Shown piece by piece: positions 2,978 to 24,115 of a DNA stretch of 31,069 nucleotides. The notes below the pieces were generated by a model, which saw only the letters and a program-made list of their open reading frames with translations, did no database searches and was not told the DNA's origin. The DNA is taken from assembly GCA_046539925.1 (NCBI GenBank), contig JBKHFZ010000016.1, forward strand, positions 1 to 31,069. Direction: 5' to 3'. Each line of letters opens with the position of its first letter. Within the stretch, counting starts at the first letter, position 1. A program made the position numbers and the translations under genes. Source of the DNA: Spirochaetaceae bacterium (lineage in GTDB: Bacteria; Spirochaetota; Spirochaetia; DSM-16054; Sediminispirochaetaceae).

Positions 2978-4147
2978 ATGAGCGGAGAGAATACTTCCGT
3001 AACCGGTACCCGATATAACGTCGGGATCTCCAGGTGTACCGGCTACAACCGGGAAAAAACCGCTGCAGCGGTAGAGGAGGCGGTCCATAGAGCAGGAGGA
3101 TTGGACATTGAGGGAAAAAGAGTCTTGCTCAAGCCTAATATCCTTCGAGATGCGGACCCGGGCAGAGCCATTACCACCCATCCGGAGATACTACGGTCGG
3201 TTATCCGTGTGTGCAGTGCTCGGGGGGCCTCGGAAATACTCGTTGGCGACAGCCCCGGCTTTGCCCCCGGCGGTTTTAGCGGGAGAAAATCTTCCCTCCG
3301 GCAGGTCGTAGAGGATGAAGGAGCGCGATGGGTAGATTTTCATTCGGAAAAAACCGTCAGGGAGGTGCCGGATCCCCTGCGGGAGAGGGTATTCCATGTA
3401 ACATCGGTACTCGACTCGGTGGATGCTGTTATAAGCCTTCCCAAACTCAAAACCCATACCCTCATGTATTATACCGGCGCGGTAAAGAACCTCTTCGGTC
3501 TTATACCCGGGCTTGCCAAACCCCCCTTTCATGTGCGATACCCCGGCAGAGAGGAGTTCGGCGAGATGCTCATAGACCTCGCGGAGGCGGTAAAGCCCCA
3601 CTACGCAATTATGGACGGGATAGTGGCAATGGAAGGCGCCGGTCCGGGAAACGGAAACCCCCGGGCGACGGGGGTGGTTGCTGCGAGTCCGAGCTGTCTT
3701 GCCCTGGATATTGCGCTTTGCCGAATTATCGGATACGACCCGCTTACGGTACCTACCAACCGAATCGGGCTGGCTAAAGAACGTAACCGCGAAGAGGGGT
3801 TGAAAAGTGCCGAAGACATCAGGCTTGTAGGGGCTTCCTTTGAAGAACTCAGGATCGAGAATTTTGAGCTTATAGGCAAAGGCGAGTTCTCCCGTTTTTG
3901 GAGGGTGGTTACCCGCAACCCGCTTTTAAGGAAAGTTGAGGTAAAACTTCGGAAAAAGCCCGTGTTTAACCACGAGAAGTGTATCCACTGCGGGGAGTGC
4001 GTAAACATATGCGCTGCGGGAGCTCTCTCCATGATAAAAGTCGAGGGAAAGCGGCGTATCCGGGTAGACTACAGCCGTTGTATCCGCTGTTACTGCTGCC
4101 ACGAAATTTGCCCCGCCGACGCCATACGAATAGGGAGAAGCCGTTGA
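2978..4147 (+). CDS. DUF362-domain protein with C-terminal 2x[4Fe-4S] ferredoxin domain
   Basis: N-terminus ...GKRVLLKPNIL... is typical of DUF362. C-terminus has CIHCGECVNICAAGA and CIRCYCCHEICPADAI, two CxxCxxCxxxCP motifs. AGAGAGG ribosome-binding site. Confidence 0.7.
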   Translation: MSGENTSVTGTRYNVGISRCTGYNREKTAAAVEEAVHRAGGLDIEGKRVLLKPNILRDADPGRAITTHPEILRSVIRVCSARGASEILVGDSPGFAPGGFSGRKSSLRQVVEDEGARWVDFHSEKTVREVPDPLRERVFHVTSVLDSVDAVISLPKLKTHTLMYYTGAVKNLFGLIPGLAKPPFHVRYPGREEFGEMLIDLAEAVKPHYAIMDGIVAMEGAGPGNGNPRATGVVAASPSCLALDIALCRIIGYDPLTVPTNRIGLAKERNREEGLKSAEDIRLVGASFEELRIENFELIGKGEFSRFWRVVTRNPLLRKVEVKLRKKPVFNHEKCIHCGECVNICAAGALSMIKVEGKRRIRVDYSRCIRCYCCHEICPADAIRIGRSR

Positions 4148-6149
4148 AACTGAATTTAGCTGAAGAACTCAACCCGGAACAACTGAAGGCCGCCGAGATA
4201 ATAGACGGCCCCCTTCTTATTATAGCCGGTGCCGGGTCGGGCAAGACGAGGACCGTTACATTTCGAATTGCACACATGCTCGAGAAGGGAATACCCCAAT
4301 CCTCGATTCTTGCCCTTACATTTACCAACAAAGCGGCCAGGGAGATGGCGGAGAGAGTCCGCTCTCTTACCGGCAGGCGTCTCTCGAACCTCACCGTATC
4401 CACATTCCACGCCTTTGGAGTAAAGGTCCTCAGGAACTCGATAGACAGGCTCGGCTACACATCCACCTTCAGCATATACGACCAAGTGGATAAACTCTCT
4501 CTATTAAAAGAGGTGGCCCGAGAGTTAAAGATAAGCCATGACGCGGTGGATTTTTACCAGGCGGGCAATCTCTTTTCCGCCATAAAAACCGGCAGAGCCG
4601 AGTGGACCAGGGAGAACACCGGGCTTAAACCTATGTACCAGGAGTACACGGAACATCTTAAGGTGTACAACGCGGTGGATTTTGACGATCTTATTATGCT
4701 CCCTATCCGTCTCTTCGAGGAGCACCCGGATGTTCTCGAGGAGTACCGCAATAAATACCGTTATCTTATGGTAGACGAGTTTCAGGACACATCCCTCTCC
4801 CAGTACCGACTTATGAAGCTCCTCGGAGAGGAATCGAAGAACCTCTGCGTGGTGGGAGACGACGATCAGTCCATATACTCATGGCGTGGCGCCAATTATA
4901 TGAACCTGCTGCAGTTCGAAAGGGATTTTCCCGAAAGAGTCGAAATAAAGCTGGAGCAGAATTACCGTTCTACCCGGCATATACTCTCAGCTGCAAACGA
5001 ACTTATATCCCACAACACCAACCGCAAGGGTAAAGTCTTGTGGACTGGAATGGACGGAGGAAAAGCAATAGAACTCTTCTATCCCGAGGACGAAGCAAAG
5101 GAGGCGCAATTTATCTCGGAGATGATTAAAAGCCTCTCTATGCAGGAGCGTATACCCTACCACGACTTTGGCATACTCGTTCGAACCAACAGTCTCTCCG
5201 CGGCAATAGAAAACGCCCTCCTCGCGGAGAATATACCCTATAAAGTCTCAGGAGGACAAAGCTTCTTCCAGCGCAAGGAGATAAAGGATATAACCGCCTA
5301 TCTGCGGGTCATAGCCAATCCGGATGACGATGTAAACCTTTTGCGGATTATCAATACCCCGAGAAGAGGCATAGGAAAGACCACCCTTCAGAAAATCAGG
5401 GATATAGCCGCAGAAAAAAATATCTCCCTCTACTCTGCGGTTTCCGCTATTCGCTGGGCATCGGATGCACCGGTTACTCAGAAAGCAAAGGAGCATTTGG
5501 ATGAGTTCCTCTCGCTTATCGAATACTACCGTGAGACGATTTTAAGGGGAAAAAAATGGCGGAATCGACCCGAGCCCTGGTCGAGAGAATAGATTACTGG
5601 GGGCACTTGCTGCAGGAGTATCAGACAAACGACAACGTTGCCAAGTGGAAGTACAACAATATCGGCATCTTCCTCGACCTTTTTGACCGATGGGAGAAGG
5701 ATCCCGATACGGAGGAACCCACGCTCTTTAACTGGCTCGGCAGAATCAGCCTCATTACCAAGGACGACGACAAGGAAGACGAAGAGGGCAAGATCAATCT
5801 GATGACTGTTCATGCCTCGAAGGGGCTCGAGTTCGGCGTGGTCTTTTTAGCGGGGGTCGAGGATCATCTTATTCCCCACGCACGGGCAATCGAGGAGAAC
5901 GAAGAGAATATCGAGGAGGAGCGAAGGCTCTTCTACGTTGCCATTACCCGGGCCAAACAGAAACTCTACATTACCAGCTGCAAGAGCCGTAAATCCCTTA
6001 AAGAGAGGACCGACTCAGTCCCCTCGAGGTTTCTCGAAGAGATTCCGGGGGAGCTGATTGAGTTTCACAGCCCGGAAGAAGAGGTGGACGCCGAAGAGGC
6101 GGCAGACTATTTTGCGATGATGAAGGAGAAACTCGCTAAAAAGAGATAG
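4144..6149 (+). CDS. UvrD/PcrA/Rep-family ATP-dependent DNA helicase, interrupted by a +1 frameshift at an A7 tract (5550-5556)
   Basis: N-terminal part (frame of ORF 3979-5592, probable TTG start at 4144 overlapping the upstream stop): LNPEQLKAAE...AGAGSGKTRT (Walker A), VDEFQDTS (motif II), VGDDDQSIYSWRGA. C-terminal part (ORF 5556-6149, different frame): VHASKGLEFGVVFL, VAITRAKQKLYITS (motif VI). Summed length about 680 aa, normal for the family. Confidence 0.8.
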
Positions 6150-6459: not shown

Positions 6460-7596
6460 CTAGACCACAAAACGCAAGAGGCATCCGATCTCGTTATCCT
6501 CAATTTTATGGGCGTAGGAGAATAAGTGTCTTACCTCCCCTTTCTGTTCGGCAGTCTCCTCTACAATCTCCTCTATAATATTCTCACTTTTTTCCAGCTG
6601 TTCTCCACAGACGGGGCATCTCTGGGACTTAAGTGAGAGATAATGATCCCTTGGACAGAAATACCCCTCTTTTTTCGCCTCCGGGTGAACAACGAGGGTG
6701 TGAATCTGGCCGTTCATAAGGGCTTTAATTGCAGGCCCCGTGCCGAGAACCGCCTTGCCGCCGTTGTAGGCATTTTCGAAAAGATTTTGAACAATCTCCT
6801 CCTCTCTCTGCCTCTCCCATTCCGTGGCCAGCTCTTTTACTTTCTTTTTGATTACATCCACACTGTTTTCCGGATTGGCTTGGATTTCCCCGACCAGCCT
6901 TTTTTCAGGATAACTGTGCAGGTTGTCCTGCAGAATATTGAGTTCACCTCTGTCGCTGCCGCCTATTATAAGGTAGTCGTACCCTCCGGCCTGAAAGTTG
7001 TCGAAAATCGTATCGGCAACCTGTTTTATATGCCTGAGCTTGTGGTCTTTTATGTATCGTTCGTACCTCTGTTCTCCGAGACCCTTCAAGGCCTCGTCTC
7101 GGGCTCCCTTTATCTCCTCTTCCGTAAAGATATCCGTTCTTTCGTTCATGTTTCCGCCGGAATAGGAGAACATCTTGGCCTTGTGGGAATCTACAACTAC
7201 GACACAAAACAGGGGAAACTGCTCGTCCAGCACAAGAAGCGGATTCACATGGGGAGCCGGTTCCACCCATAGGTTGCTCGGCAGGGAGACAGGCAGTTCA
7301 AACTCCTCCCAGTTACCCAGTGTGTCGGCACAGATAACAAGAAGTTTGGTGTTTTTGAAGCTTCCCTCTCTGTTGACAATCTGATCCTCGATCTTAAGGA
7401 GAAGCTTCTCGAGTTTTTCTCTCTCTTCCTGACTGTAGCTCTTATCGTCCCGTAGCTCCTTGATCTTTCCTCTTACAAGAGAATTGATCGTGCTCGTCAA
7501 CTCCCAAGGAACAGTAACGTTTAGATAAAGACTCACCGTAGGATGCGCTTCGTTACGATACTTCTTAAGTGCCTGTAATCGTTCTCTATACGACAT
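6460..7596 (-). CDS. Bacterial eRF1/Pelota(Dom34)-like protein with C-terminal Cys4 zinc ribbon
   Basis: 378 aa. PLFCVVVVDSHKAKMFSYSGG resembles the start of eRF1 domain 2 (FGFIVIDGSGALFG). AIKALMNGQIHTLVVH resembles eRF1 domain 3 (TLKALEMGAVEILIV). No GGQ motif, so Pelota-like. C-terminus carries CPRDHYLSLKSQRCPVCGEQ plus an acidic tail. From memory only. Confidence 0.5.
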   Translation of the reverse strand: MSYRERLQALKKYRNEAHPTVSLYLNVTVPWELTSTINSLVRGKIKELRDDKSYSQEEREKLEKLLLKIEDQIVNREGSFKNTKLLVICADTLGNWEEFELPVSLPSNLWVEPAPHVNPLLVLDEQFPLFCVVVVDSHKAKMFSYSGGNMNERTDIFTEEEIKGARDEALKGLGEQRYERYIKDHKLRHIKQVADTIFDNFQAGGYDYLIIGGSDRGELNILQDNLHSYPEKRLVGEIQANPENSVDVIKKKVKELATEWERQREEEIVQNLFENAYNGGKAVLGTGPAIKALMNGQIHTLVVHPEAKKEGYFCPRDHYLSLKSQRCPVCGEQLEKSENIIEEIVEETAEQKGEVRHLFSYAHKIEDNEIGCLLRFVV

Positions 7597-8756: not shown

Positions 8757-9581
8757 ATGAATTTACGCACAACCACAACACTACACAACGGAACTTTAAT
8801 GCCTTTAATAGGATTGGGGGTGTTTCAGGTCGAAGACGGGCCGGAAGTGGAGAACTCGGTACGCTGGGCTCTCGAACTGGGGTACAGACATTTGGATACG
8901 GCATCTTACTATCAAAACGAAGCCGGCGTTGGCAAAGCCCTCGCGGAGAGCGGTGTAGACAGAGAGGATGTGTTTCTTACCACCAAGGTGTGGAACGACC
9001 AGCAGGGGTATCAAAACACCCTCGATGCCTTTGACGAGAGCAGAAAAAAACTGAGGACAGATGTAGTTGACCTCTACCTCGTGCACTGGCCGATAAAGGG
9101 TCTCTATAAGGATACCTGGAAGGCCCTGGAGAAGCTTTATGCGGAGGGAAAGGTAAGAGCCATAGGTGTAAGCAACTTTCTTATACATCATATAGAGGAG
9201 CTTTTGAATAACACGGATGTTGTGCCGGCGGTTAACCAAGTAGAACTCCACCCCTTTCTTCGACAGAAACAGCTTCACGATTTCTGCGTACAAAAGGGCA
9301 TACAGATAGAGGCGTGGAGCCCGCTTACCAGAGGCAGGTTTCTCGACAATGCCGTAATTACCGATATCGCCGCCGCCCATGGAAAGAGTCCGGCTCAAGT
9401 GCTTATCCGCTGGGACCTGCAACACCATATCGTTACTATTCCAAAGTCGACTCACAGGGAGCGCATTAAAGAAAACAGCGAAGTCTTCGACTTCGAGCTT
9501 ACGCAGGAGGAGATGGAGCGGCTCGACTCCCTCGATACGGAGACGAGAATCGGACCGCATCCCGACGTTATGGGTGGTTAG
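8757..9581 (+). CDS. Aldo/keto reductase (2,5-diketo-D-gluconate reductase-like AKR)
   Basis: 274 aa. [31 protein letters not shown] and [13 protein letters not shown] are classic AKR signatures. Confidence 0.85.
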
Positions 9582-12370
9582 CTCTCCTCTCGTATTGAGT
9601 TCATCACATCATACACCTTCGTAAGCTCATTCTCGAGCACCTTGACCAGTGTGTGGGGTGTCTGAGGGTCTCTCTCCCCTGGTGAGGATCCTGCTGTAGT
9701 GGCAACTCTCTCCAGCTCTTCGGCGGTCTGCTGAACCCTCTCTGCGTAGAGGGTCATCGCCGCTCCTTTTACCGCGTGGGACAGACTTCTCAGCTCTTCC
9801 CATCTTTCTCCCTTTAGGGCATCTTTTATTTGTTCCAGATGGATCGGCATATCCCTGACAAATATATCCGCCAGCTCCAGTATATCTTCATCGTCGTGGG
9901 ATGAGTATTCTTTAAGGGCTTCTCTATTAAAAATGAGTCTATCCTCATCGGGAATTTGGGGCTGAGCATGCTTCTTCTGGAGATACTTTTTAAGAGTATC
10001 TATCAAATCCTTGGGGCGAAGCGGTTTGGAGAGATAATCGTCCATCCCTGCTTCGAGACAGCGCTCTTTATCTCCCTTCATAACATGGGCGGTCATGGCT
10101 ATTATGGGTATGTGCGGTGGTATATCCTTGTCGTTGCTCTTTCTTATCTCTCGGGTAGCTTCAAAACCGTCCATTATAGGCATCTGCACGTCCATTAGAA
10201 CAAGATCGCACTTTTGTCTTGTTAAAACCTCGAGAACGTCTTTTCCATTTTTTGCCGAGACAAAAGTGTAACCCAGCTTCTCCAAACTCTTTTCCGCAAT
10301 AGTTCTATTAATAGCATTGTCGTCGGCAATAAGAATGCAATACCCCTTGTTAGCCGGGTCATACTCAAATCTGGTGTTTTTTTTCAATCCGTCGGCAGTA
10401 GGAGCGACAGTTGGAGCAGAAGTCGGGGCAGGTGTCGAAGCGGGCGCGGCCCCGGAAGCCGGTTCGACTGTGTGTGCGCCTTCAACGTGGGCTATTGGCG
10501 GAGAAGCAGCCGAGACTTTACCGTTTTCTGCGAGGCACTCGTACAAAACGGTAAACAGTCTCGTCTCTTTAAGAGGTTTAGAGAGAATTCCGTCAAAACC
10601 GTAACGGTCGTATTTATAACGGTCGGACACCGAATTGTGGTCCAAGAGCAGCACAATTCGCGCTTTCCCTCTCTCCTCGGCGTCTTTAATTTTTCTTAGT
10701 ACAATATCCGGGCCGGGGTTCTCCAGATTTTCAGAAATCAATACAAAATCGTATGTGCCCTCCCTCTCCTTATTTTGGGAAACGTGTTCAAGGACTTCTT
10801 CGAGACTCTCTGCGGTCTCACATTTTATTCCCTGGAAAGAGAGGATGGACACAAGCATGTCTCTGCCGGATTTGTGTCTGTCTGCAATTAAAACGCGTAG
10901 ACGCCGGTTTTCTGAAACAGGGAGTTTAGTCCCCTTCTTTGATATCGGGTCGAGGGGTATCACAAATGGCAGGGTCAGGGAAAATGTCGACCCCCTACCT
11001 TCGGTGCTCTCTATATCGATGGTTCCCCCCAGCAAATCGGTAAGGCGCTTTACGATTGAGAGTCCCAAACCGGTCCCCCCGTAGTGTCGGCTCGATGAAG
11101 AATCCACTTGGGAGAAGGGCATAAAGAGTTCCTTCATCTTCGCTTTTGGAATTCCAATACCCGTATCGATCACGTCAAAGGTTATATCAATACGGGATTG
11201 GTCTACGCTCTTCAAATATCCCCTTACCTTCACTTCCCCTTCTTGGGTAAACTTGACCGCATTTCCCACCAGGTTAACCAGAATTTGCTGAAGCCTTACC
11301 GAGTCTCCCACCAGGTATCTTGGTATATCGGGGTCTATGTGGTAGACAAGTTCTACATTCTTTCCTATAGCCCTTTGAGAGACAATATCTATAACCTCTG
11401 AGGATACGCTATCGAGATCGAAGGTTCCCCTGTTCAACTCCAATTTACCCGCCTCAATTTTGGAGAAGTCGAGAATATCGTTAATAAGGGTAAGCAGATG
11501 ATTGCCACTGCCTATAACCGTCTGTACAAATTCCTGTTGTTCGGAATCCATATTTGTATCCAAAAGAAGGGAGGAAGACCCCAGTATAGCGTTCATGGGT
11601 GTACGTATCTCGTGGCTCATATTGGCCAAAAATTCCGACTTTGCCCTGTTTGCCCTCTCGGCTTCCCTCTTTGCCTCTTGCAGCTTCCCCTCGTTCTCCC
11701 TGATATTCGTAATATCCCTCATAAAGGTGAGAAGACTTCGTTCACCTTCAAACTCCAATAGGGTGGTAGAAGTCAAGAAAAAGTAGTTCCTGTTCTCCAT
11801 TTTTATCTCCCGTTCCTGCCCCTTGATCTCTTCGTGCTCCTCGAGCTTTCTCACAAACTCTTCTCGCTCTTTTTTATCCCGCCACAGGCCGAGGGCAATG
11901 CTGTCTTCTCCGATACAGTCTCCCCTCTCTATCCCCAGAAGTTCCAGAAAAGCGGAGTTTGCGTCCAGAACAACACCGTCTTTCAGCCTGGTAAGAAGAA
12001 TCGGATCGGGGCTTATCTGGAAAATGCGGGTAAACTTCTTCTCGGATATTCTCTTGAGCTCCTCCGCTTCCACTTGTTGTGTGATATCATGAAAAATTGC
12101 CAGCTGAACCTTTTTCTCGTACCAGCTGGTATTGGTGGTCATCATCTCGACTCTGCGGAGACCTCTTTTTTTGTTGAGGATATCAATCTCCGTCTTTTCT
12201 CCGGAGATAAGGGGAAACCCGAGATTTGTTCTCTCCAGCTCCTCCTCCTTTCTACCGAAAATATCCGCTGCAGCCGGATTTGCATAGAGGATGCTTCCCT
12301 GTTCATCCACGATTACAATTCCGTCCTGGCTTTTCTGCAGCAGAGCCATAAAGGGGTTTTCTCTATCCAT
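9578..12370 (-). CDS. Hybrid sensor histidine kinase: PAS-PAS-HisKA-HATPase_c, pseudo-receiver, Ala/Pro/Ser/Thr-rich linker, receiver, HPt
   Basis: Two PAS modules at the N-terminus. H-box [15 protein letters not shown]-box [10 protein letters not shown]-boxes DTGIGI and [10 protein letters not shown]. The first receiver-like domain reads YDFVLIS where the phospho-acceptor Asp is expected (pseudo-receiver). Linker [22 protein letters not shown]. Second receiver is canonical ([23 protein letters not shown]). C-terminal HPt ([15 protein letters not shown]). Start re-called to the ATG at 12370 (MDRENPF), giving an 8-nt ATGGATAG overlap with the kaiC stop; the track start is 12397. Confidence 0.85.
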
Positions 12371-13898
12371 TGTCAAACATATCTTTAAGCCGTTCATCTT
12401 CGGCGGCAGTGGCGGTATGTCTCGGATTGCCCGATAGTATTCCCGTCACGTTTGTAAAGGGTCTGCCTATATGCATTCCCTTCGCATCTATTGTAAATTC
12501 GCGGATATCCTTGTCGTGCATGGAACCTCGCATCTTTAATACGGTTAAACCACGCCTCATTTCGCCGTATATTTCCACGTACCGAAGAATCAATATGGAG
12601 TCGGTAAGAGTCGATATATGGGCCTCGGTTACCGATGAGCCGCCGGTAAGAGTTGGAGTGGTGGAAGTAAAGAGACCGGCTATCTCCTTGTGTTTTATAA
12701 AGGAGGTTACGCTGATAATGAATTCACGAAACCCCTTTGTCGTGGAGATCCTCTCTACGGCACTCAGGCTGTCCAGGGCGACTCTTGCGGGGTTGAACTC
12801 CTCTATGGAGTCCTTTATGCTGATGAGGTGGTCCTCAAGACTGGAGACTTCGGGATATTTACACACTACCCTGAGCTTTCCCTCCTCCTCCCATTTTCTG
12901 TAGTCCACTCCCCAACCGGTGGCGTTGCGAACGAGCTGCTCCCTGCTCTCCTCGAATGCAATAAGCAGGCATCTCTCTCCGCTTTTTGCGCCCCCCGCCA
13001 TAAACTCCGTGGTGGTGAGTGTTTTTCCCGTACCCGTTGCTCCGGAGACGAGTATTATACTGTCGCGGTAGAAACCGCCTCCGCACATTTTATCCAACTC
13101 TTCGTTGCCGGAACTTATACGCACGTAGGAGGAGTTCTGCTTTAACTCGAGGGCGGAGAGGGGAATAATAACTATCCCCCTGCCTGAGACAATGGAAAAG
13201 GGAAACTCCCCCTTTTGATGGTTGGCACCCCGAAACTTGAGTACCTCTATCGTTCTCCTGCGCTTCTCGTCCTCCAGAACGTTTCTCAGAATAATTACGT
13301 TGTCTGTTACAAACTCCTCCACGCCAAAACGGGCTACCTGTCCGTACTCCTCGTCCCGCTCGGCGGTAAGAATGGTGGTAACTCCCAGGGACCTGAGGGT
13401 AAATACCGCCCGAAGCAGCTCCCCCCGTACAATAGTGGAGTTCCCCAGGGCGGTAAAAATAGCGCCGAGGGCGTCTATGCTCACCCGCTCCGCGTTCACC
13501 TTATGAATTGCGTTTTCTACCCTCGACAGGAGTCCGCCCAGGTCGAAATCCCCGGATATAACGGTCTCCTGCTCCATTACCGGAGAGGCGTCCACAAATA
13601 TCCACTTGCCCTCTTCTTCCCACTTCTGTATATCCCATCCGAGGGAGTTGATATTTTTACGAATATCCTCGGGCCTCTCCTCGAAGGTAACAAAGACACC
13701 ATGTTCTCCCCTCAGAACACCCTCTGCTAAAAACTGTATGGCAAAGATGGTTTTTGCACTCCCGGAAGTTCCCGTAACGAGGGTGGTTCTGTTTTTGGGG
13801 ATTCCTCCGTAGGTAATAATGTCGAAGCCCTCTATGCCTACATCCAATTTTCCTACTGCAGTTTCGGTATCGCTCTTTTTGGAACTCTTTTTAGCCAT
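12363..13898 (-). CDS. kaiC: Circadian clock protein KaiC homolog (double RecA/KaiC domain ATPase/autokinase)
   Basis: 511 aa, two tandem KaiC domains. CI: GTSGSAKT plus catalytic pair FEERPED. CII: Walker A GATGTGKT plus FEESREQ. Phospho-site context [25 protein letters not shown] matches S. elongatus DSHISTITDTIILLQYVEIRGEMSR (S431/T432). The C-terminal tail [28 protein letters not shown] aligns with the KaiC A-loop region IKDSFRNFERIISGSPTRITVDEKSEL. Confidence 0.92.
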
Positions 13899-14181
13899 TC
13901 TTTTCCTCCACGCTCAGGAGCCGTAGCACCTCTTCTGTGTCCGAAAGATCGCCGATTATCCTGCGACCGCCCTCTCCAGGCTCCCCGGTAACATAAATAA
14001 GTGTTGGTGTAGCCAAAATCCTCTCCTCTTCCGCCTGGTCGGGGTTTTCCAATACATCTATTACTATCATGTCGAAATTTTCGGAAAGCAGCCTCTTGTA
14101 GATCGAACGAAGATTGCGCACCGCCTCCTGGGATCTCTGGGTTCTTCCCGTCACAAACAGTTTTAATAAATTGTTTTTCAT
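13891..14181 (-). CDS. kaiB: Circadian clock protein KaiB homolog
   Basis: About 96 aa from the ATG at 14181: MKNNLLKLFVTGRTQRSQEAVRNLRSIY...DVLENPDQAEEERILATPTL...RIIGDLSD matches cyanobacterial KaiB (LKLYVAGNTPNS...[20 protein letters not shown]...RIIGDLSD). The track ORF starts at an upstream TTG (14244). Stop overlaps the kaiC ATG by 8 nt (ATGGCTAA). Confidence 0.9.
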   Translation of the reverse strand: MKNNLLKLFVTGRTQRSQEAVRNLRSIYKRLLSENFDMIVIDVLENPDQAEEERILATPTLIYVTGEPGEGGRRIIGDLSDTEEVLRLLSVEEKNG

Positions 14182-14182
14182 C

Positions 14183-16039
14183 TCAGAGCCCGTCCCTGGA
14201 ATAGCCGGTTTCGAAAGACGATTGATTACGATAAAAAGAGACAAGATGCCCCATAAGTTCCATAGCCAGAAGCCTCCCCTCGTCGGTAAGCGCCTTCGCC
14301 CTCTTGTAATTCACGCCGCTGCTGAGGTTCTTTAATGCCGTCACGTGCAGCTCCACCACATCCTTTGGTCCTGCTTCCATAACACCCAGCCTCTGGGCGA
14401 GAGTCTGTAGACGGGAAGAAATCTTCTTGTCTGTTCTGTACATTCTCTCCTCCAGACGATCGTTTAATACAGCCTTATAGCTCTCTATCATCTCGTTGAA
14501 ATCGTCGGGTTTTGTCTCTCGAATCATCTTCTGAGAGTACATTCGACCGGTAACGTTTGTAGGCCCTGGGGAGGAGTACGTCTCCATTCTCATTATCTCC
14601 GCCTCGAGCTGTTTGACTCTGCTCTCCATCTCGTTCTTTTGTTCGGTAATATCAATGCCCGTAGATATAATGTTCTCTACACCCCCTTTCTGGTCCGGTA
14701 CAACCGTATTGGTCCACGCAATAAACTTTTTCTCTCCGTATTTCGTTATCCAATGGTTTTCGTGGGTATTCGGATACATTCCGTGTAACAGTTCCTTGAA
14801 TACCTTTCCCACATCCTCTTTTTCTTCCTCCGGGACGAGATCGAAAAGCGAGATTCTCGAAAGTTCTTCCTCGGTATAACCGGAAACAAGCTCACAGGTC
14901 TTATTCATCCGCATTATACCGCCGTCTTTATCTATAATGACAATAAGAGCCCCGGAGGTCTCAAGAATAGCCTCTACAAACCTCTCCTCTCTGTAGAGAG
15001 CATCCTCGGCTTGCTGTTTTTCCGTAATATCCCGAATTAGTCCAATGTATCCTGTTAATTGCTCGTTACCGTCTTTAAGGGAGAACACCTTTGTCTCACC
15101 GGGAAACACCTCTCCGTTCTTTTTTTGGTAATAGACGGTAAACAGAAAGGCCGAGTTATCTGTCCGCCGGATTTTATCTCCAAGGTTTTTAAACTCGTCT
15201 TCGTCTTCGTATACAATGGATGTTTTTTTTCCCTCGAGTTCGGATAAAGTGTATCCGAACTGCTCGGTAAATGCCTGGTTGCAGTCTATAATCTTTCCGT
15301 CGGTATCCGCCACCAGAATGGCGTCTCTAATGCTGTTGTAAAGATTTTTGTAGCGTCTTTCGCTGTACTGCAGCTCCTGTTGAGCTTCGGAATACTTTTT
15401 GAGATTGTTAATCCACAGGTCGAGCTCCGACTCTTCGGGCTTGTCCCCCAAAAGTTTATCCGGAGGCAGGTAATAGAAATTGTCGTACACCTCTGTTCCG
15501 ATAATTGCGTGGGGGTGGGTTCTCAAGACATCGAGCATTACAGAAGGGGAAAACCTTCGCTTGTCGTACTGACAGAGCCCTATACATCTGTGAGCGGGGA
15601 TAAATCGGTTGAGCTTGTTCTCGTACTCTATAAGCCGTTCCGTGCCCGGCAAGTCTTTTAAAGCCCAGGTCATCTCTCCCGTTACCCGGAAAGCGGAAAA
15701 GCCCTGATCTAAAGCTTTATTCGTCTCTTCCTTGAGAAGTGCGATCATGGCATCCGGGTCGAACTTGCCGTCTTTGGTATAGGTCTCGTCTCCTGTGAGT
15801 ATAACGAACCGGCCTGTCTCCATGTAATTATCCAGGTCTACCCCTTCTTCCCGCAGATATCCGGTTACTGTCTCTGCAGTGTGTGCATCTACAATGTAGA
15901 TAACCTTCTGGTTTTTCTCGAGACCGAGCCTCACAAAGAGGGACACCACCTGTTTGTGCTCCTCCTCGGTCCGGTAGATGCAACAGAGATGGTCCCCCGG
16001 TTTGAGACTGCGTATGTCCTGTAATGCCGAATATGCCAT
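14183..16039 (-). CDS. MEDS-domain / PAS / PAS sensor protein with a helical C-terminal region proposed to be KaiA-like
   Basis: From the ATG at 16039: MAYSALQDIRSLKPGDHLCCIYRTEEEHKQVV..., a MEDS-type N-terminal domain (DHxCxIY signature). Two PAS modules follow (residues about 230-470). The C-terminal 110 aa, KDVVELHVTALKNL...EGRLLAMELMGHLVSFYRNQ, resembles my recollection of the KaiA C-terminus (KVVEIHMELMDEF...RLTLIDVIAHLCEMYRRS). Stop lies 1 nt before the kaiB ATG. The track start (16072) is a TTG. Confidence 0.75.
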   Translation of the reverse strand: MAYSALQDIRSLKPGDHLCCIYRTEEEHKQVVSLFVRLGLEKNQKVIYIVDAHTAETVTGYLREEGVDLDNYMETGRFVILTGDETYTKDGKFDPDAMIALLKEETNKALDQGFSAFRVTGEMTWALKDLPGTERLIEYENKLNRFIPAHRCIGLCQYDKRRFSPSVMLDVLRTHPHAIIGTEVYDNFYYLPPDKLLGDKPEESELDLWINNLKKYSEAQQELQYSERRYKNLYNSIRDAILVADTDGKIIDCNQAFTEQFGYTLSELEGKKTSIVYEDEDEFKNLGDKIRRTDNSAFLFTVYYQKKNGEVFPGETKVFSLKDGNEQLTGYIGLIRDITEKQQAEDALYREERFVEAILETSGALIVIIDKDGGIMRMNKTCELVSGYTEEELSRISLFDLVPEEEKEDVGKVFKELLHGMYPNTHENHWITKYGEKKFIAWTNTVVPDQKGGVENIISTGIDITEQKNEMESRVKQLEAEIMRMETYSSPGPTNVTGRMYSQKMIRETKPDDFNEMIESYKAVLNDRLEERMYRTDKKISSRLQTLAQRLGVMEAGPKDVVELHVTALKNLSSGVNYKRAKALTDEGRLLAMELMGHLVSFYRNQSSFETGYSRDGL

Positions 16040-16116: not shown

Positions 16117-16146
16117 TTGACATCTTATCCTTACTGCTTCTATAGT
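16117..16146 (+). promoter_or_regulatory. Sigma70-type promoter for the ilv leader (TTGACA-18 nt-TATAGT)
   Basis: TTGACA at 16117-16122 and TATAGT at 16141-16146, about 20 nt upstream of the leader ATG at 16168. Confidence 0.55.
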
Positions 16147-16167
16147 TCTTTACGAGGTGGAGGTATA

Positions 16168-16290
16168 ATGCGTAAGGCGAAACCGCATACAAGTACGAAT
16201 TTCTCATTTTATAGCGACAGTGCACCCGCTCTGCTCGGTCTAGTCGTCGTACTACCCCTCCTCTCTCAACACCGTCGGGAAAGCGGTTAG
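16168..16290 (+). CDS. ilvBN attenuator leader peptide (40 aa, Leu/Val-rich)
   Basis: GGAGG ribosome-binding site 6 nt upstream. The ORF encodes MRKAKPHTSTNFSFYSDSAPALLGLVVVLPLLSQHRRESG. The run LLGLVVVLPLL places 6 Leu and 3 Val within 11 codons. An intrinsic terminator and then ilvB follow. Confidence 0.6.
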   Translation: MRKAKPHTSTNFSFYSDSAPALLGLVVVLPLLSQHRRESG

Positions 16291-16310
16291 GCCATACTTG
16301 TAGATATACA

Positions 16311-16351
16311 GGAGCCTGTCGCCATCCCGGCGACGGGCTCCTTTTTTTTTT
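16311..16351 (+). terminator. Rho-independent terminator (attenuator) upstream of ilvB
   Basis: GGAGCCTGTCGCC-ATCCC-GGCGACGGGCTCC (13-bp stem, one G.U) followed by T10. ilvB ATG lies 32 nt downstream. Confidence 0.8.
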
Positions 16352-16382
16352 GCGCCCCACAGGGCTTTAAAAGGAGGTTTGG

Positions 16383-22050: not shown

Positions 22051-24030
22051 TCAGTCCTGATACACCATATAGTCCAACATCTCATCGTCGGTATCCCGGG
22101 TAAAGGACCAGAGCTCCTCCTCCGAAAAGGAGGAAAAAGCCCCAAAAGTGGTTGTCTTATCGCTGTCTATGTCGGAGGTGTGGCGAATATAGGTTGTTTG
22201 GTAAAAGCTGAGTTTTTTGTCTCGGTGGATACCCATATTTATCAGGGTAAGTGCACCTCGCTGCATGAGCTTGAGTTTTTTCAAAAGATCATCCCTGGAG
22301 ACTATACTCCAGACTCCGAAAAAAATCGGCTGTCTGTGGTTGTTCATATCTCCTATAAACTCACCCCGAATAAGCTGTTCTTTATCTTTTCCCAGGTAAG
22401 GTACAAAATCAAGATGCTCCGCGAGTTTTCTGTCCGTAGCCAGGAAGTTCCCCGTCTCCGGGTCGAGGGTAAAAATCATCACATTCTCGATTGCCTGTCC
22501 GTAACTCTTAAACAGAGCCCCCCGATAATTTTCTATATCCACCCTTGAATACAGATGGAAGAGCCGTTTCTGTATTTCCAGGGTTATATCCAGAAACCAC
22601 TCTTTTATTTGAACATTTTCGCAGCGGAAAGAATCCAGTTCGCTCTTCAGCTCCTCTTCTTCTATTTTGTTCATAATAAAAGACAGCACCGTTCTAAAGA
22701 TGGTTCGAATGTTGTGGTGTTTGCCGAACTGGAGGATAAGATCAAAGAGGAACAGCTCCATATTTCTCAGCTGCCATATAAAAGCGATAACCTCGGTACG
22801 CGTTGTCTCCGTACCGATTGTATACACCTCGTAAAGTCTTTTTAGCTCGTTGTACCTTCTCTCGAGTTTTGCATACCACTTGTCCTGCCCTTTAATCGGC
22901 TTTTTAAAGCGAATATTCCATATAGTCCCCTCTCCCTCCTTGCTGTCTACGTGTAAATTCTCAGCTCCAAAGGTGGAATAGATCTGAATAGTACCGAGGC
23001 CCTCACCCTCCTTGCGGTCTTTTGTGGTATTTCCCACAAAGGCGGGCACTCCTGCCTCATCTTTTTTAAGGAGGTGCTTTGGAATACCAATGCCGTTGTC
23101 TCGAATCATCATAATTACTTCGTTGTCTTTTCCCTTGTTATCCCGAATCTCTATTTTAATTACTCCCTTTCGGTCTGTCTCCGCAATGGCCTCTAGAGAA
23201 TTTGAGACGATATTGACGAGGGCTCTTCCAAAATTTACATAGTATCCGAGCACAAGAGGAGACTCGGTTTCCAAAACAAGGTGAAGTGAGCAGGGAAGAG
23301 AGGAGGCTTCCACAAACGGGACTATCCTCTCAAAAATAAGGTCCTTGATATTTACCTCATGAATGCTGCTCATTGTATCTCGAAAGGCGTTGAGGGTATT
23401 TATAAGAGTTGTTGTCTCCCGGTTAATGTCCTCGATAATTTTGCCGCAGTTATCGACGGAAAGCATGTCCACCATGTGCGAGAGAAGGCGGATCGTTTTG
23501 CGAGCATCGTGCCTGGTCTTTCCAATCTCTTCGTTTAAAAATATCCCTCCCTCTTTGTTCGAGGAGGCAAAAGCTGCAATATCTTTTGCCCGTGCGTAGA
23601 GATGATAGAATATCAGGTTTCTGTAGACGGTAGTATCTCCAAGATTAAAACCCTTGTGCTGGAAAAACTCGAGGGTATCTACCTGCTTCTCCCAGAGATA
23701 GAGATACACTATTGCATCCGGTGCAACATTGACGGCAAGATATTCGATAAAAAGGGTGCCTATTCCCCTCCCTCGGCCAAAGGGGCTCGTTACCAGTTTG
23801 TATATGTTGAAATTCCTCTTTTTTTCATCGGAATATACAAGAACGTACCCGAGGATCTCTCCCTCCTCTATCCACACATAACTGTGTTCATAGTCCTTTA
23901 CCGACTTGCTGTCCTTTACGTAGGGAGAGGGAATTATAAAGGTGTCTATATGCAGAAGCGGATTCTTCTGTATTCTCTCCTCGAGTTCCGGGGTAAGCGT
24001 ATGAATTGCGTTTAACGATTTGGTGTCCAT
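22051..24030 (-). CDS. Multidomain protein: N-terminal GNAT acetyltransferase fold, central GHKL/HATPase_c ATPase, about 280-aa C-terminal domain of unknown function
   Basis: GNAT motif region VWIEEGEILGYVLVY...SPFGRGRGIGTLFIEYL. HATPase_c with N-box NIVSNSLEAI, G1 IRDNGIGIP, G2 GEGLGT. No canonical HisKA H-box seen. Start re-called to the ATG at 24030 (MDTKSLN); the track start at 24099 is a TTG. Confidence 0.6.
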   Translation of the reverse strand: MDTKSLNAIHTLTPELEERIQKNPLLHIDTFIIPSPYVKDSKSVKDYEHSYVWIEEGEILGYVLVYSDEKKRNFNIYKLVTSPFGRGRGIGTLFIEYLAVNVAPDAIVYLYLWEKQVDTLEFFQHKGFNLGDTTVYRNLIFYHLYARAKDIAAFASSNKEGGIFLNEEIGKTRHDARKTIRLLSHMVDMLSVDNCGKIIEDINRETTTLINTLNAFRDTMSSIHEVNIKDLIFERIVPFVEASSLPCSLHLVLETESPLVLGYYVNFGRALVNIVSNSLEAIAETDRKGVIKIEIRDNKGKDNEVIMMIRDNGIGIPKHLLKKDEAGVPAFVGNTTKDRKEGEGLGTIQIYSTFGAENLHVDSKEGEGTIWNIRFKKPIKGQDKWYAKLERRYNELKRLYEVYTIGTETTRTEVIAFIWQLRNMELFLFDLILQFGKHHNIRTIFRTVLSFIMNKIEEEELKSELDSFRCENVQIKEWFLDITLEIQKRLFHLYSRVDIENYRGALFKSYGQAIENVMIFTLDPETGNFLATDRKLAEHLDFVPYLGKDKEQLIRGEFIGDMNNHRQPIFFGVWSIVSRDDLLKKLKLMQRGALTLINMGIHRDKKLSFYQTTYIRHTSDIDSDKTTTFGAFSSFSEEELWSFTRDTDDEMLDYMVYQD

Positions 24031-24115
24031 ATAAGCAGTATAGTATACTTTTACAGGTTTCGCACGCCCTGCGGCTGCAAGCACGCATCTCGGCGGCAAG
24101 GGAAGCGACGAGAAT

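Follow-up and report, generated by a model that had tools for sequence, protein, structure and literature searches.

Introduction

By the prevailing view, bacteria outside the cyanobacteria lack KaiA and are limited to hourglass timers, and full KaiABC-type clocks are almost confined to cyanobacteria. Whether true Kai-based oscillators exist outside the cyanobacteria is a long-standing question. In 2024, a KaiA3-KaiB3-KaiC3 system was described in Synechocystis sp. PCC 6803 and relatives (Koebler et al., PMC11372060). The KaiC3 autokinase is stimulated by KaiA3, and when KaiC3 is combined with KaiA3 and KaiB3 in vitro, its phosphorylation goes through cycles; stimulation of KaiC by KaiA3 was reported for the Synechocystis protein only (PMC11372060). 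The reported occurrences of KaiA3 cover 15 cyanobacteria and five other genera, and in every case the protein has a receiver domain (PMC11372060). The KaiCs of the KaiC3 group oscillate in the presence of their cognate KaiB and KaiA3 (PMC12081879). No description of MEDS or PAS fusions to KaiA or KaiA3, or of Kai systems in spirochaetes, was found in the open-access literature.

Here I analysed a stretch of 31,069 nucleotides (the window) from a Spirochaetaceae bacterium (assembly GCA_046539925.1, contig JBKHFZ010000016.1). A preliminary description made from the sequence had proposed a Kai system with a fused input, a possible KaiA-like stimulator, and a phosphorelay kinase in one operon. The anatomy and the central guess of this proposal were borne out, the KaiA-like domain being supported by a weak sequence match, predicted fold, family, and synteny, while parts of its background needed correction.

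The four-gene operon

As listed in Table 1, four tightly coupled genes lie on the minus strand, at the positions and in the dense packing that had been claimed, and encode a MEDS-PAS-PAS-KaiA-like protein (ORF1), KaiB, KaiC, and a hybrid histidine kinase (HK). Direct reading of the junctions also gave the expected spacing of 1, 8, and 8 nt. ORF1 and kaiB are separated by a gap of 1 nt (TGA-G-ATG), while kaiB and kaiC overlap by 8 nt (ATGGCTAA) and so do kaiC and the HK gene (ATGGATAG).

Table 1. Coordinates in the window of the operon genes and of the domains and motifs in their products.
Feature	Coordinates	Strand	Description	Basis
ORF1	14183-16039	minus	618 aa; MEDS - PAS - PAS - KaiA3-like C-terminal domain (sensor-fused KaiA homologue)	ORF, Pfam, identical NCBI protein, full-length homologues
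MEDS domain (residues 16-176)	15512..15994	minus	KaiC/RecA-like fold without P-loop (pseudo-KaiC, 'iKaiC')	
Two PAS domains (residues 229-340, 367-460)	14660..15355	minus		Pfam PAS / PAS_9 / PAS_3 and TIGR00229
KaiA3-type KaiA-like module (residues 470-618)	14186..14632	minus	signalling helix, conserved extended segment, helical bundle ~505-607	
kaiB	13891-14181	minus	96 aa; KaiB3-like	Pfam KaiB, PDB KaiB matches, alignment with related KaiBs
kaiC	12363-13898	minus	511 aa; double-domain, KaiC3-like	NCBIfam TIGR02655, PRK09302, PDB matches
KaiC CII phosphorylation sites T424, S429, T430	12600..12629	minus	conserved across 57 KaiCs	alignment to Ser/Thr sites in KaiCs of solved structure
KaiC C-terminal tail motif EDERLKDMF (residues 500-508)	12375..12401	minus	candidate site at which a KaiA-like dimer would dock	
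HK gene	9578-12370	minus	930 aa; PAS-PAS, HisKA, HATPase, pseudo-receiver, receiver, HPt	Pfam, receiver comparison, ortholog alignment
HK pseudo-receiver (residues 490-617)	10520..10903	minus	directly after the catalytic core	receiver comparison, ortholog alignment

An NCBI assembly look-up revealed an identical ORF1 protein in GCA_046540915.1 (contig JBKHEI010000018.1), where the gene calls are likewise 618, 96, 511, and 930 aa. The exact KaiC protein has no record in the contig index, although the ORF1 look-up led to the same operon. Three further spirochaete MAGs (L001-L003) have an operon of the same four genes, again with the HK gene after kaiC, and full-length homologues of ORF1 are found in these loci and as P0003. 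At another locus (L084), kaiB, kaiC, and sensor-kinase genes come after a MEDS-GAF-PAS variant. Spirochaetia / Spirochaetaceae MAGs are the closest relatives, in agreement with the earlier suggestion that the host is not a cyanobacterium. Upstream of ORF1, a consensus promoter scan gave nothing convincing on the minus strand. The window has no Rfam matches and no response regulator gene.

KaiC and KaiB

The kaiC product is a circadian-type double-domain KaiC with tandem RecA-like domains, scoring above the curated cutoffs of NCBIfam circ_KaiC (TIGR02655; 609.8 bits, cutoff 546.25) and PRK09302 (708.5 bits, cutoff 408) and matching Pfam PF06745 in two stretches (392 bits). Both Walker A motifs (GTSGSAKT at residues 43-50 in CI, GATGTGKT at residues 286-293 in CII) are present, together with the Ser-Thr pair and the upstream Thr. 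The Ser-Thr pair in HISTLTD and the two catalytic Glu-Glu pairs noticed in the preliminary description were located at S429/T430, E73/E74 (CI), and E316/E317 (CII). The CI Walker A is a variant in which Ala replaces the Gly before the Lys (GSAKT). This variant is common to all KaiCs adjoining KaiA3-like genes and, being family-wide, is probably functional.

The protein ends 11 residues past the start of its tail motif, whose pattern, E-[VI]-[DE]-R-x-x-x-[LM]-F, is kept in essentially all KaiCs adjoining KaiA3-like genes. KaiA binds the KaiC C-terminal peptide (title of PDB 5c5e), and by analogy the motif is a candidate docking site for the KaiA-like domain. Among PDB sequences, ancestral KaiC-beta (8zn5) matches with 699 bits, cyanobacterial KaiCs with 564-583 bits, and Rhodobacter KaiC (8dba) with 338 bits, while KaiCs adjoining KaiA3-like genes at non-spirochaete loci match with 705-798 bits. 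The marks of a KaiC2-type protein, a C-terminal coiled-coil of ~50 aa and Ser-Ser sites, are absent from this protein of 511 aa with Ser-Thr sites. As judged from its sequence, the protein is KaiC3-like, having the Ser-Thr pair and the conserved tail motif and lacking the KaiC2 coiled-coil extension.

KaiB matches Pfam PF07689 with 73.4 bits (cutoff 27) and the KaiBs in the PDB with E 1e-15. The Pfam profiles confirmed both proposed families, KaiB and KaiC, with E values far beyond chance. Against the NCBIfam equivalogs for canonical circadian KaiB, the protein scores 69 bits and does not reach the cutoffs of 110 and 145, as would fit a KaiB3-like subtype. Alignment with the KaiBs of related loci revealed a 3-residue insertion specific to the window.

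The sensor-fused KaiA-like protein

Pfam gave no Response_reg match in ORF1, whose N-terminus consists of MEDS and two PAS domains, and no recognisable output or enzymatic domain. The MEDS domain (PF14417, 174 bits) has a KaiC/RecA-like fold and lacks a Walker A motif; it scores 55.6 bits against NCBIfam RsbA_anti_sig, below the cutoff of 210. The PAS pair matches TIGR00229 over two stretches (152.8 bits), while the NCBIfam models for DosP, FixL, and NifL match weakly, far below their cutoffs. The LOV motif NCRFLQ is absent from the sequences of both PAS domains.

The last ~149 residues of ORF1 have a weak but consistent sequence match to the KaiA C-terminal domain. Pfam KaiA (PF07688) aligns over model positions 14-117 of 122 with 18.1 bits (E 0.003), below its gathering cutoff of 22.2, and the best three PDB sequence matches each span an entire KaiA C-domain. 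When a profile of 36 family sequences was used against PDB sequences, seven KaiA chains were among 11 matches, with E values of 0.04-2.7 and the unrelated SHERP on top; the KaiA match was not sharpened. Comparison by hhalign with an alignment of canonical KaiA kept the same register (P 4e-4, probability 34%). The identity to KaiA is 15-22%. Sequence alone is insufficient as proof of homology at this level, and fold and synteny are therefore needed.

The AF2 model of the C-terminal domain is a helical bundle (pLDDT 88.7), predicted to have the four-helix-bundle fold of the KaiA C-domain. The top three Foldseek matches are KaiA (probability 0.99-1.00), and three different KaiA entries are included among the best structural matches. 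KaiA and RsbU belong to a common SCOP superfamily. RsbU_N (PF08673) was rejected as the identity of the domain, with 12.8 bits and no place in the structural match lists. A word-indexed search with the C-terminal 149 aa returned two fragments only, and the idea of an orphan domain was discarded because an exhaustive HMM search gave a large family.

This family consists of 1,571 clusters at 50% identity, and the domain is C-terminal in all of them. The N-terminal domains of 128 members are REC (70), PAS (about 60), GAF (9), MEDS (8), MASE3 (3), and protoglobin (1), and none of the 128 reaches E 1e-3 with canonical Pfam KaiA. Family members are publicly annotated as 'PAS domain', 'MEDS domain' or 'CheY-like', and their KaiA-like part therefore escapes routine annotation. 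In a one-genome-per-species collection, 312 loci were confirmed. A synteny search had been proposed as a check: of the 80 loci retained, 74 have kaiB as the next gene downstream of the KaiA-like gene, and kaiC then follows in 58. KaiA3-like domains adjoin kaiB or kaiBC in at least 10 phyla.

Is this the family of KaiA3? Among the proteins picked out by a profile of the ORF1 C-terminal domain are those of Microcystis, Crocosphaera watsonii, and Roseiflexus, with tblastn E values of 1e-29 to 1e-32. KaiA3 has been published for these taxa, and the proteins have the published KaiA3 architecture of REC followed by a KaiA-like domain. The Microcystis loci have kaiB and lack an adjacent kaiC. The missing adjacent kaiC of M. 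aeruginosa NIES-843 is an exception reported by Koebler et al., whose supplement file of reciprocal-BLAST hits lists a 'CheY' of this strain (PMC11372060). The C-terminal domain of ORF1 is placed in the Sll0485 family via these members; taxa, architecture, and synteny are the grounds for tying ORF1 to KaiA3. As is typical of KaiA3, the ORF1 gene is immediately upstream of kaiB3(-kaiC3)-like genes, with the 1-nt gap and then the 8-nt kaiB/kaiC overlap, while the N-terminal NarL-type receiver is absent. Given the weak sequence match, the predicted fold, the family membership, and the synteny, the C-terminal part of ORF1 is KaiA-like, and the question mark that had been attached to this label can be dropped.

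The hybrid histidine kinase

Pfam revealed two PAS domains, HisKA, HATPase_c, two Response_reg stretches, and Hpt in HK. The phosphorelay set is complete: H253, HATPase_c (106.8 bits), the receiver residues D683/D684, D727, T760, and K782, and H865 in SHAVKGAA of the HPt domain. The first receiver-like domain has no acidic pair and has Ser546 at the place of the phospho-Asp D727 of the second receiver; the DD pair is absent from it in all four spirochaete orthologues. Thus, the kinase had been correctly read as carrying a pseudo-receiver, a true receiver, and an HPt domain. The N-terminal KaiB-like (thioredoxin-fold) domain that marks SasA is not present, since the N-terminus consists of two PAS domains. 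In CikA, the pseudo-receiver is placed directly after the kinase catalytic core. HK likewise has its pseudo-receiver C-terminal to the kinase core, and has no GAF domain.

Proposed working and alternative explanations

It is probable that the operon encodes a post-translational Kai timer of the KaiA3-KaiB3-KaiC3 type, expressed with a signalling kinase from one translationally coupled transcript. By analogy with KaiA and Synechocystis KaiA3, the KaiA-like domain would dimerise, bind the KaiC tail EDERLKDMF, and stimulate CII autophosphorylation at S429/T430. Phosphorylated KaiC would recruit KaiB, KaiB would sequester the KaiA-like protein, and KaiC would then dephosphorylate. The phosphorylatable receiver is replaced by MEDS and a pair of PAS domains, which a conserved helix connects to the KaiA-like bundle, so that signals from the environment or from metabolism (redox, O2, or a small ligand) would gate the activator directly. 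The gated activator would set or reset the phosphorylation state of KaiC. HK would most likely read the KaiB-KaiC state, possibly via its pseudo-receiver as CikA does, and would pass phosphate via the receiver and HPt to a response regulator encoded elsewhere. Is the timer a free-running oscillator or a signal-reset hourglass? The sequence is compatible with either.

A bolder reading, which I offer tentatively and with some doubt, is that KaiA-type activators are a large modular family and not essentially a cyanobacterial invention, a family in which nearly every kind of input (REC, PAS, GAF, MASE3, protoglobin, or the pseudo-KaiC MEDS) is coupled to a KaiA-like bundle driving KaiB and KaiC. 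The spirochaete operon would then amount to a whole three-protein oscillator, open to direct entrainment, in a host that is not photosynthetic, and MEDS would be a KaiC decoy able to bind KaiB or to assemble together with KaiC. If true, the decoy would give a feedback connection found in no described Kai system.

The operon may instead be a non-temporal stress or signal switch, bistable or graded, which uses the same biochemistry of KaiA-like activation and KaiB antagonism to report redox or nutrient state to HK without timing day length, as has been proposed for the KaiBC homologues of Legionella and Pseudomonas. The host is apparently a non-phototrophic Spirochaetia bacterium, direct PAS/MEDS input could make the state track the signal and not time, and a passage of Koebler et al. 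cites stress-response roles of KaiBC in Legionella and Pseudomonas (PMC11372060). However, KaiC keeps every feature tied to slow ordered phosphorylation (the T/S/T sites and both Glu pairs) and is closest to the KaiC3/ancestral group, in which oscillation was reconstituted (PMC12081879), and a mere switch is unlikely.

Could ORF1 be an output or a buffer and not the stimulator of the autokinase, its KaiA-like bundle and MEDS docking on KaiC/KaiB so that clock state controls ORF1, or its MEDS decoy titrating KaiB? This is very unlikely: no output or enzymatic domain is recognisable in ORF1, the REC, PAS or GAF input at the N-terminus of most family members fits signal flow into the KaiA-like domain, KaiA3 stimulates KaiC3 (PMC11372060), and MEDS, found in 8 of 128 members only, cannot be central to the function of the family.

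Least probable of all is a KaiA-independent KaiBC hourglass of the kind known in Rhodobacter, in which KaiC would self-phosphorylate, KaiB would drive dephosphorylation by the ATP/ADP ratio, and ORF1 would be a co-transcribed sensor with C-terminal helices for dimerisation; although the ORF1 C-terminus matches KaiA below the Pfam threshold, the known mechanism uses a KaiC2-class C-terminal coiled-coil of ~50 aa and Ser-Ser sites (PMC10076222), the window KaiC (511 aa, Ser-Thr) has 338 bits with Rhodobacter KaiC and 583-699 bits with KaiC1/ancestral KaiC, and a generic dimerisation helix is not expected to accompany kaiB as this domain family does, at 74 of 80 loci in many phyla. The preliminary description had given such hourglasses as background, but these belong to the KaiC2 class with its coiled-coil tail (PMC10076222), which the window KaiC lacks, and the match to cyanobacterial KaiC (583 bits) far exceeds that to Rhodobacter KaiC.

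The locus and its family bring KaiA3-like domains fused to direct sensor domains, beyond the receiver-only KaiA3, and suggest that full KaiABC-type clocks are modular and widespread. A pseudo-KaiC domain fused to a KaiA-like domain is a design not yet explored. With four coupled genes and soluble proteins, this compact operon lends itself in practice to reconstitution in vitro, which bears on a self-sustained clock in a non-phototroph and on entrainment by a sensor-gated KaiA.

Comparison with known systems

Like KaiABC of Synechococcus elongatus and Thermosynechococcus, the operon has the three components in one cluster. Its KaiC has catalytic and phosphosite motifs identical to those of canonical KaiC (564-583 bits), while the tail sequence differs (the EDERLKDMF motif) and the CI Walker A is GSAKT. 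KaiB matches canonical KaiB (E 1e-15), and the C-terminal domain of ORF1 is predicted to share the KaiA C-domain fold; the domain is 15-22% identical to KaiA and below the Pfam KaiA cutoff, and the pseudo-receiver N-domain of KaiA is replaced by MEDS-PAS-PAS. The kinase has PAS domains in place of the KaiB-like domain of SasA. As in CikA, a histidine kinase core is directly followed by a non-phosphorylatable receiver-like domain, while the input is PAS and not GAF, and a true receiver and HPt are added. By analogy with CikA, this domain may dock on fold-switched KaiB. With the MEDS regulators (DcmR, RsbA-type anti-sigma factors) and archaeal iKaiC, ORF1 shares the MEDS profile match and a KaiC-like fold without a P-loop, but its MEDS is fused to PAS and KaiA-like domains and encoded beside a true KaiC.

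The Rhodobacter sphaeroides KaiBC hourglass (KaiC2 class; Pitsawong et al. 2023, PMC10076222) is likewise a non-cyanobacterial kaiB-kaiC pair, but it has no KaiA-like partner (PMC10076222), and its KaiC (338 bits) has the ~50-aa coiled-coil and the Ser-Ser sites that the window KaiC lacks.

With the KaiA3-KaiB3-KaiC3 system of Synechocystis sp. PCC 6803 (PMC11372060), the operon shares the gene order KaiA-like, kaiB, kaiC, a C-terminal domain in the HMM family of the REC+KaiA-like proteins of Microcystis, Crocosphaera, and Roseiflexus, and a KaiC with Ser-Thr sites and no long tail. The preliminary description had called the architecture undescribed. This does not hold for the core of KaiA-like, kaiB, and kaiC, a kind already described by Koebler et al. 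in 2024 (PMC11372060); novelty is limited to the input of MEDS-PAS-PAS and to the occurrence in a spirochaete. The spirochaete operon, known from its sequence, differs from the Synechocystis system in that ORF1 has MEDS and two PAS domains instead of the NarL-type receiver (618 aa versus ~300) and that a translationally coupled hybrid kinase is added downstream of kaiC.

Organization of the operon and its neighborhood

It was found that four ORFs are closely packed on the minus strand at positions 9578-16039. Direct reading of the junctions revealed a 1-nt gap between ORF1 and kaiB (TGA-G-ATG), an 8-nt overlap of kaiB and kaiC (ATGGCTAA), and an 8-nt overlap of kaiC and the kinase gene (ATGGATAG), in agreement with the coordinates and spacings of the preliminary description. 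The gap and the two overlaps indicate that the four genes are translationally coupled. Both overlaps (13891-13898 and 12363-12370) share the form ATGG(C/A)TA(A/G), and the upstream protein ends with Asn-Gly in each case. This repeated overlap suggests a conserved translational-coupling signal. An identical ORF1 protein and the same four gene calls are found in the NCBI assembly GCA_046540915.1.

Coordinates of the operon genes, neighboring genes, and ORF1 domains
Feature	Position	Strand or orientation	Basis or score
ORF1, 618 aa	14183-16039	-	ORF reading
kaiB, 96 aa	13891-14181	-	ORF reading
kaiC, 511 aa	12363-13898	-	ORF reading
Hybrid histidine kinase gene, 930 aa	9578-12370	-	ORF reading
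ilvBN	upstream of operon	divergent	
Aldo-keto reductase gene	downstream of operon	convergent	
MEDS domain	ORF1 residues 16-176		174 bits
Two PAS domains	ORF1 residues 229-340 and 367-460		Pfam

The neighbors of the operon are unrelated housekeeping genes. Further genes in the window encode a phosphoglucomutase/phosphomannomutase-family protein, a HAD hydrolase, a UvrD-like helicase, a GGDEF-PilZ protein, and a DEAD-box helicase. The nearest relatives of ORF1 come from MAGs of Spirochaetia, Spirochaetaceae, and Sediminispirochaeta. Thus, the host is a spirochaete; the other genes of the window had already suggested that it is no cyanobacterium.

Between ORF1 and ilvB, the plus-strand region 16117-16382, which has no Rfam match, resembles a transcription attenuator of the leader-peptide type for ilvBN. 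It comprises, in order, a sigma-70 promoter close to consensus (16117-16146, 11/12 positions), a Shine-Dalgarno site, and a 40-codon ORF that starts at ATG 16169 (MRKAKPHTSTNFSFYSDSAPALLGLVVVLPLLSQHRRESG) and includes a Leu/Val-rich run. A GC-rich hairpin of 14 bp with its T9 tail (16310-16351) comes next, and the ilvB start at 16383 lies immediately beyond it. A UvrD/PcrA-like helicase (3979-6149, plus strand) is broken into two overlapping frames, one with the UvrD N-terminus and the first half of UvrD_C (3979-5592) and the other with the last third of UvrD_C (5556-6149); either the gene is a frameshifted pseudogene or the assembly is in error here. Two minus-strand ORFs are unusual: a 682-aa ORF (22051-24099) with GNAT acetyltransferase and HATPase_c domains together, and a 378-aa ORF (6460-7596) with a bacterial eRF1-like domain (baeRF family 10/12).

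The KaiA-like domain of ORF1 and its family

The last ~149 residues of ORF1 have no above-threshold Pfam match. This region had been tentatively called KaiA-like. The Pfam KaiA model is matched below threshold (E 0.003) over nearly its whole length, and the top three PDB sequence matches are to C-terminal domains of KaiA, each aligned over its full length. With a 36-sequence family profile, 7 of the 11 PDB matches are KaiA chains (E 0.04-2.7). An hhalign comparison with a 30-sequence alignment of canonical KaiA covered 97 columns with the register unchanged (P value 4.3e-4), at a probability of only 34%. As judged from sequence, the likeness to KaiA is weak and consistent. Since helical bundles are promiscuous, the fold alone is insufficient. 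Rather, the KaiA-like identity is supported by the predicted fold, the register-consistent sequence matches, the near-obligate synteny with kaiB and kaiC, and the published biochemistry of KaiA3 in combination, and the tentative call was upheld. Residues 470-489 form a conserved helix (pLDDT about 80). Ahead of the bundle lies a conserved segment 'SSPGPTNVTGRMY' (residues ~490-505, lower confidence), which, speculatively, could be the counterpart of the KaiA linker, the part paired with KaiB in the night complex.

A three-sequence profile of the C-terminal domain was used for an exhaustive HMM search, in which 1,571 cluster representatives reached E <= 1e-3 and 1,243 of them E <= 1e-10. The KaiA-like domain is C-terminal in all of the best 150 of the 1,571 matches. 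The N-terminal domains of 128 complete members are REC (70), PAS (about 60), GAF (9), MEDS (8), MASE3 (3), and protoglobin (1). None of these 128 proteins reaches the Pfam KaiA model at E 1e-3, and family members are annotated at source as 'PAS domain S-box', 'MEDS domain-containing', or 'CheY-like'.

In a one-genome-per-species collection, 312 loci were confirmed by scanning, and 80 of them were kept. The kept loci belong to Spirochaetes, Chloroflexota (Chloroflexaceae, Roseiflexus, Anaerolineae, and Dehalococcoidales), Cyanobacteria (Microcystis, Crocosphaera, Hydrococcus, and others), Desulfobacterota, Latescibacterota, Acidobacteriota, Planctomycetota, Verrucomicrobiota, and Armatimonadota. 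Their ORFs were searched with the window proteins, a synteny check proposed in the preliminary description, and the gene order was borne out: in 74 of the 80 loci kaiB directly follows the KaiA3-like gene in the same orientation, kaiC lies downstream in 58, and a histidine kinase gene is found less than 1.8 kb past kaiC in 18. The Microcystis loci have kaiB and lack an adjoining kaiC, which is the exception reported for M. aeruginosa NIES-843 by Koebler et al. (PMC11372060). The proteins of Microcystis, Crocosphaera watsonii, and Roseiflexus have the published KaiA3 architecture, REC plus the KaiA-like domain in about 290-300 aa. I conclude that the C-terminal domain of ORF1 is a KaiA3-type KaiA-like domain.

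The MEDS fusion is recurrent and no one-off. The same four-gene operon was found in three other spirochaete MAGs; two of the ORF1 homologues are MEDS-PAS-PAS-KaiA-like (L001 and L002) and one has a single PAS (L003). An Anaerolineae MAG has MEDS-GAF-KaiA-like proteins, and in the locus L084 a MEDS-GAF-PAS-KaiA-like gene precedes kaiB, kaiC, and sensor-kinase genes. The KaiC of L084 (8343-9876) is called as two genes of 236 and 271 aa (CI and CII), which points either to a frameshift or to a KaiC that is truly split.

Several loci deviate from the usual layout. Right upstream of the main cluster, L019 (4927-7494) and L037 (2072-3875) have a second, far more divergent cluster with a KaiA-like match of 28-33 bits, a kaiC of about 590 bits, and, in L019 only, a kaiB. 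This hints at still more remote KaiA-like subfamilies. In the Planctomycetota loci L070 (6693-9665) and L076 (6552-10013), matches to a kinase core, REC, and the KaiA-like domain are consecutive, in a single stop-free frame in L076, and kaiC follows directly; kaiB was not detected between or near the KaiA-like and kaiC matches. In nine loci of Chloroflexaceae or Roseiflexus (L011, L015, L021, L024, L039, L047, L057, L074, and L079), a histidine kinase gene lies immediately upstream of the KaiA3-like gene on the same strand. The KaiA3-like protein is REC+KaiA-like in L047, the locus checked, and the upstream kinase may be the cognate kinase of the KaiA3-type receiver.

KaiB, KaiC, and the hybrid kinase

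KaiB and KaiC had been called unambiguous, and profile searches agreed, with Pfam matches for KaiB (73.4 bits) and KaiC. The KaiB scores below the NCBIfam equivalog cutoffs for canonical KaiB. It has a 3-residue insertion, YVTGEPGEGGRR, absent from the closest spirochaete orthologues, and the spirochaete KaiBs lack the PPP[LV]RR motif of canonical and other KaiB3-like KaiBs.

The KaiC passed the circadian KaiC model TIGR02655 (609.8 bits, cutoff 546) and PRK09302 (708.5 bits). The expected Glu pairs and Ser-Thr phosphosites were located: CI has the Walker A GTSGSAKT and E73/E74, CII has the Walker A GATGTGKT and E316/E317, and the phosphosites are T424, S429, and T430. Among solved structures, the best agreement was with 8ZN5 (699 bits), the ancestral KaiC-beta reconstructed by Mukaiyama et al. 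(PMC12081879), followed by cyanobacterial KaiCs (564-583 bits), and only 338 bits were obtained with the Rhodobacter KaiC2-type structure. Pitsawong et al. distinguish KaiC1/KaiC3 from KaiA-independent KaiC2 by a coiled-coil extension and by Ser-Ser versus Ser-Thr sites (PMC10076222). In contrast to the Rhodobacter class, the 511-aa window KaiC lacks the ~50-aa coiled-coil and has Ser-Thr instead of Ser-Ser sites. The KaiA-independent hourglass background invoked earlier is unlikely for this protein.

The CI Walker A (KaiC residues 43-50, window 13749-13772) has Ala/Ser at the normally invariant Gly before Lys. In an alignment of 57 KaiCs, GT[SA]GS[AS]KT is present in every KaiC adjoining a KaiA3-like gene (L001-L080), which at the sequence level shows a subfamily trait, not a defect of the window gene. 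The signature may tune CI ATPase activity. A C-terminal motif, E-[VI]-[DE]-R-x-x-x-[LM]-F, is also conserved among the 57 KaiCs. Its window version, EDERLKDMF (residues 500-508), lies directly past the A-loop region. By analogy with KaiA, which binds the KaiC C-terminal peptide (PDB 5c5e), it is the likely docking site for the KaiA-like domain.

In the kinase, two PAS domains are followed by HisKA (H253), HATPase_c, a receiver-like domain (490-617), a canonical receiver, and HPt (H865). The receiver-like domain lacks the acidic pair in 4/4 spirochaete orthologues and has Ser546 at the phospho-acceptor position in the window kinase, whereas the canonical receiver retains D683/D684, D727, T760, and K782. 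The earlier reading as pseudo-receiver, true receiver, and HPt therefore holds.

Proposed mechanism and comparison with known systems

From the parts list, gene coupling, and family relationships demonstrated here, the following mechanism is proposed. The KaiA-like bundle would dimerise and bind the KaiC tail, promoting CII autophosphorylation, and KaiB would then bind phospho-KaiC and sequester the activator. MEDS and PAS would gate the activator on a signal via the conserved helix 470-489, standing in for the KaiA3 phospho-receiver and for the pseudo-receiver of KaiA, which is quinone-sensing. The hybrid kinase would read the KaiBC state, possibly via its CikA-like pseudo-receiver, and would relay phosphate through the receiver and HPt to an unlinked response regulator.

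The preliminary description had considered the architecture undescribed. In the searchable open-access literature, I found no description of sensor modules replacing the receiver, especially the pseudo-KaiC MEDS, of a spirochaete KaiA3-type system coupled to a hybrid kinase, or of how large the KaiA3-like family is and how widely it is spread across phyla. The claim stands for the MEDS/PAS input and the spirochaete system with its coupled kinase and not for the core, since the KaiA3-KaiB3-KaiC3 kind of system is already known (PMC11372060). In vitro, the KaiC3-group proteins of Synechocystis and Cyanothece show oscillation when combined with their cognate KaiB and KaiA3 (PMC11372060, PMC12081879).
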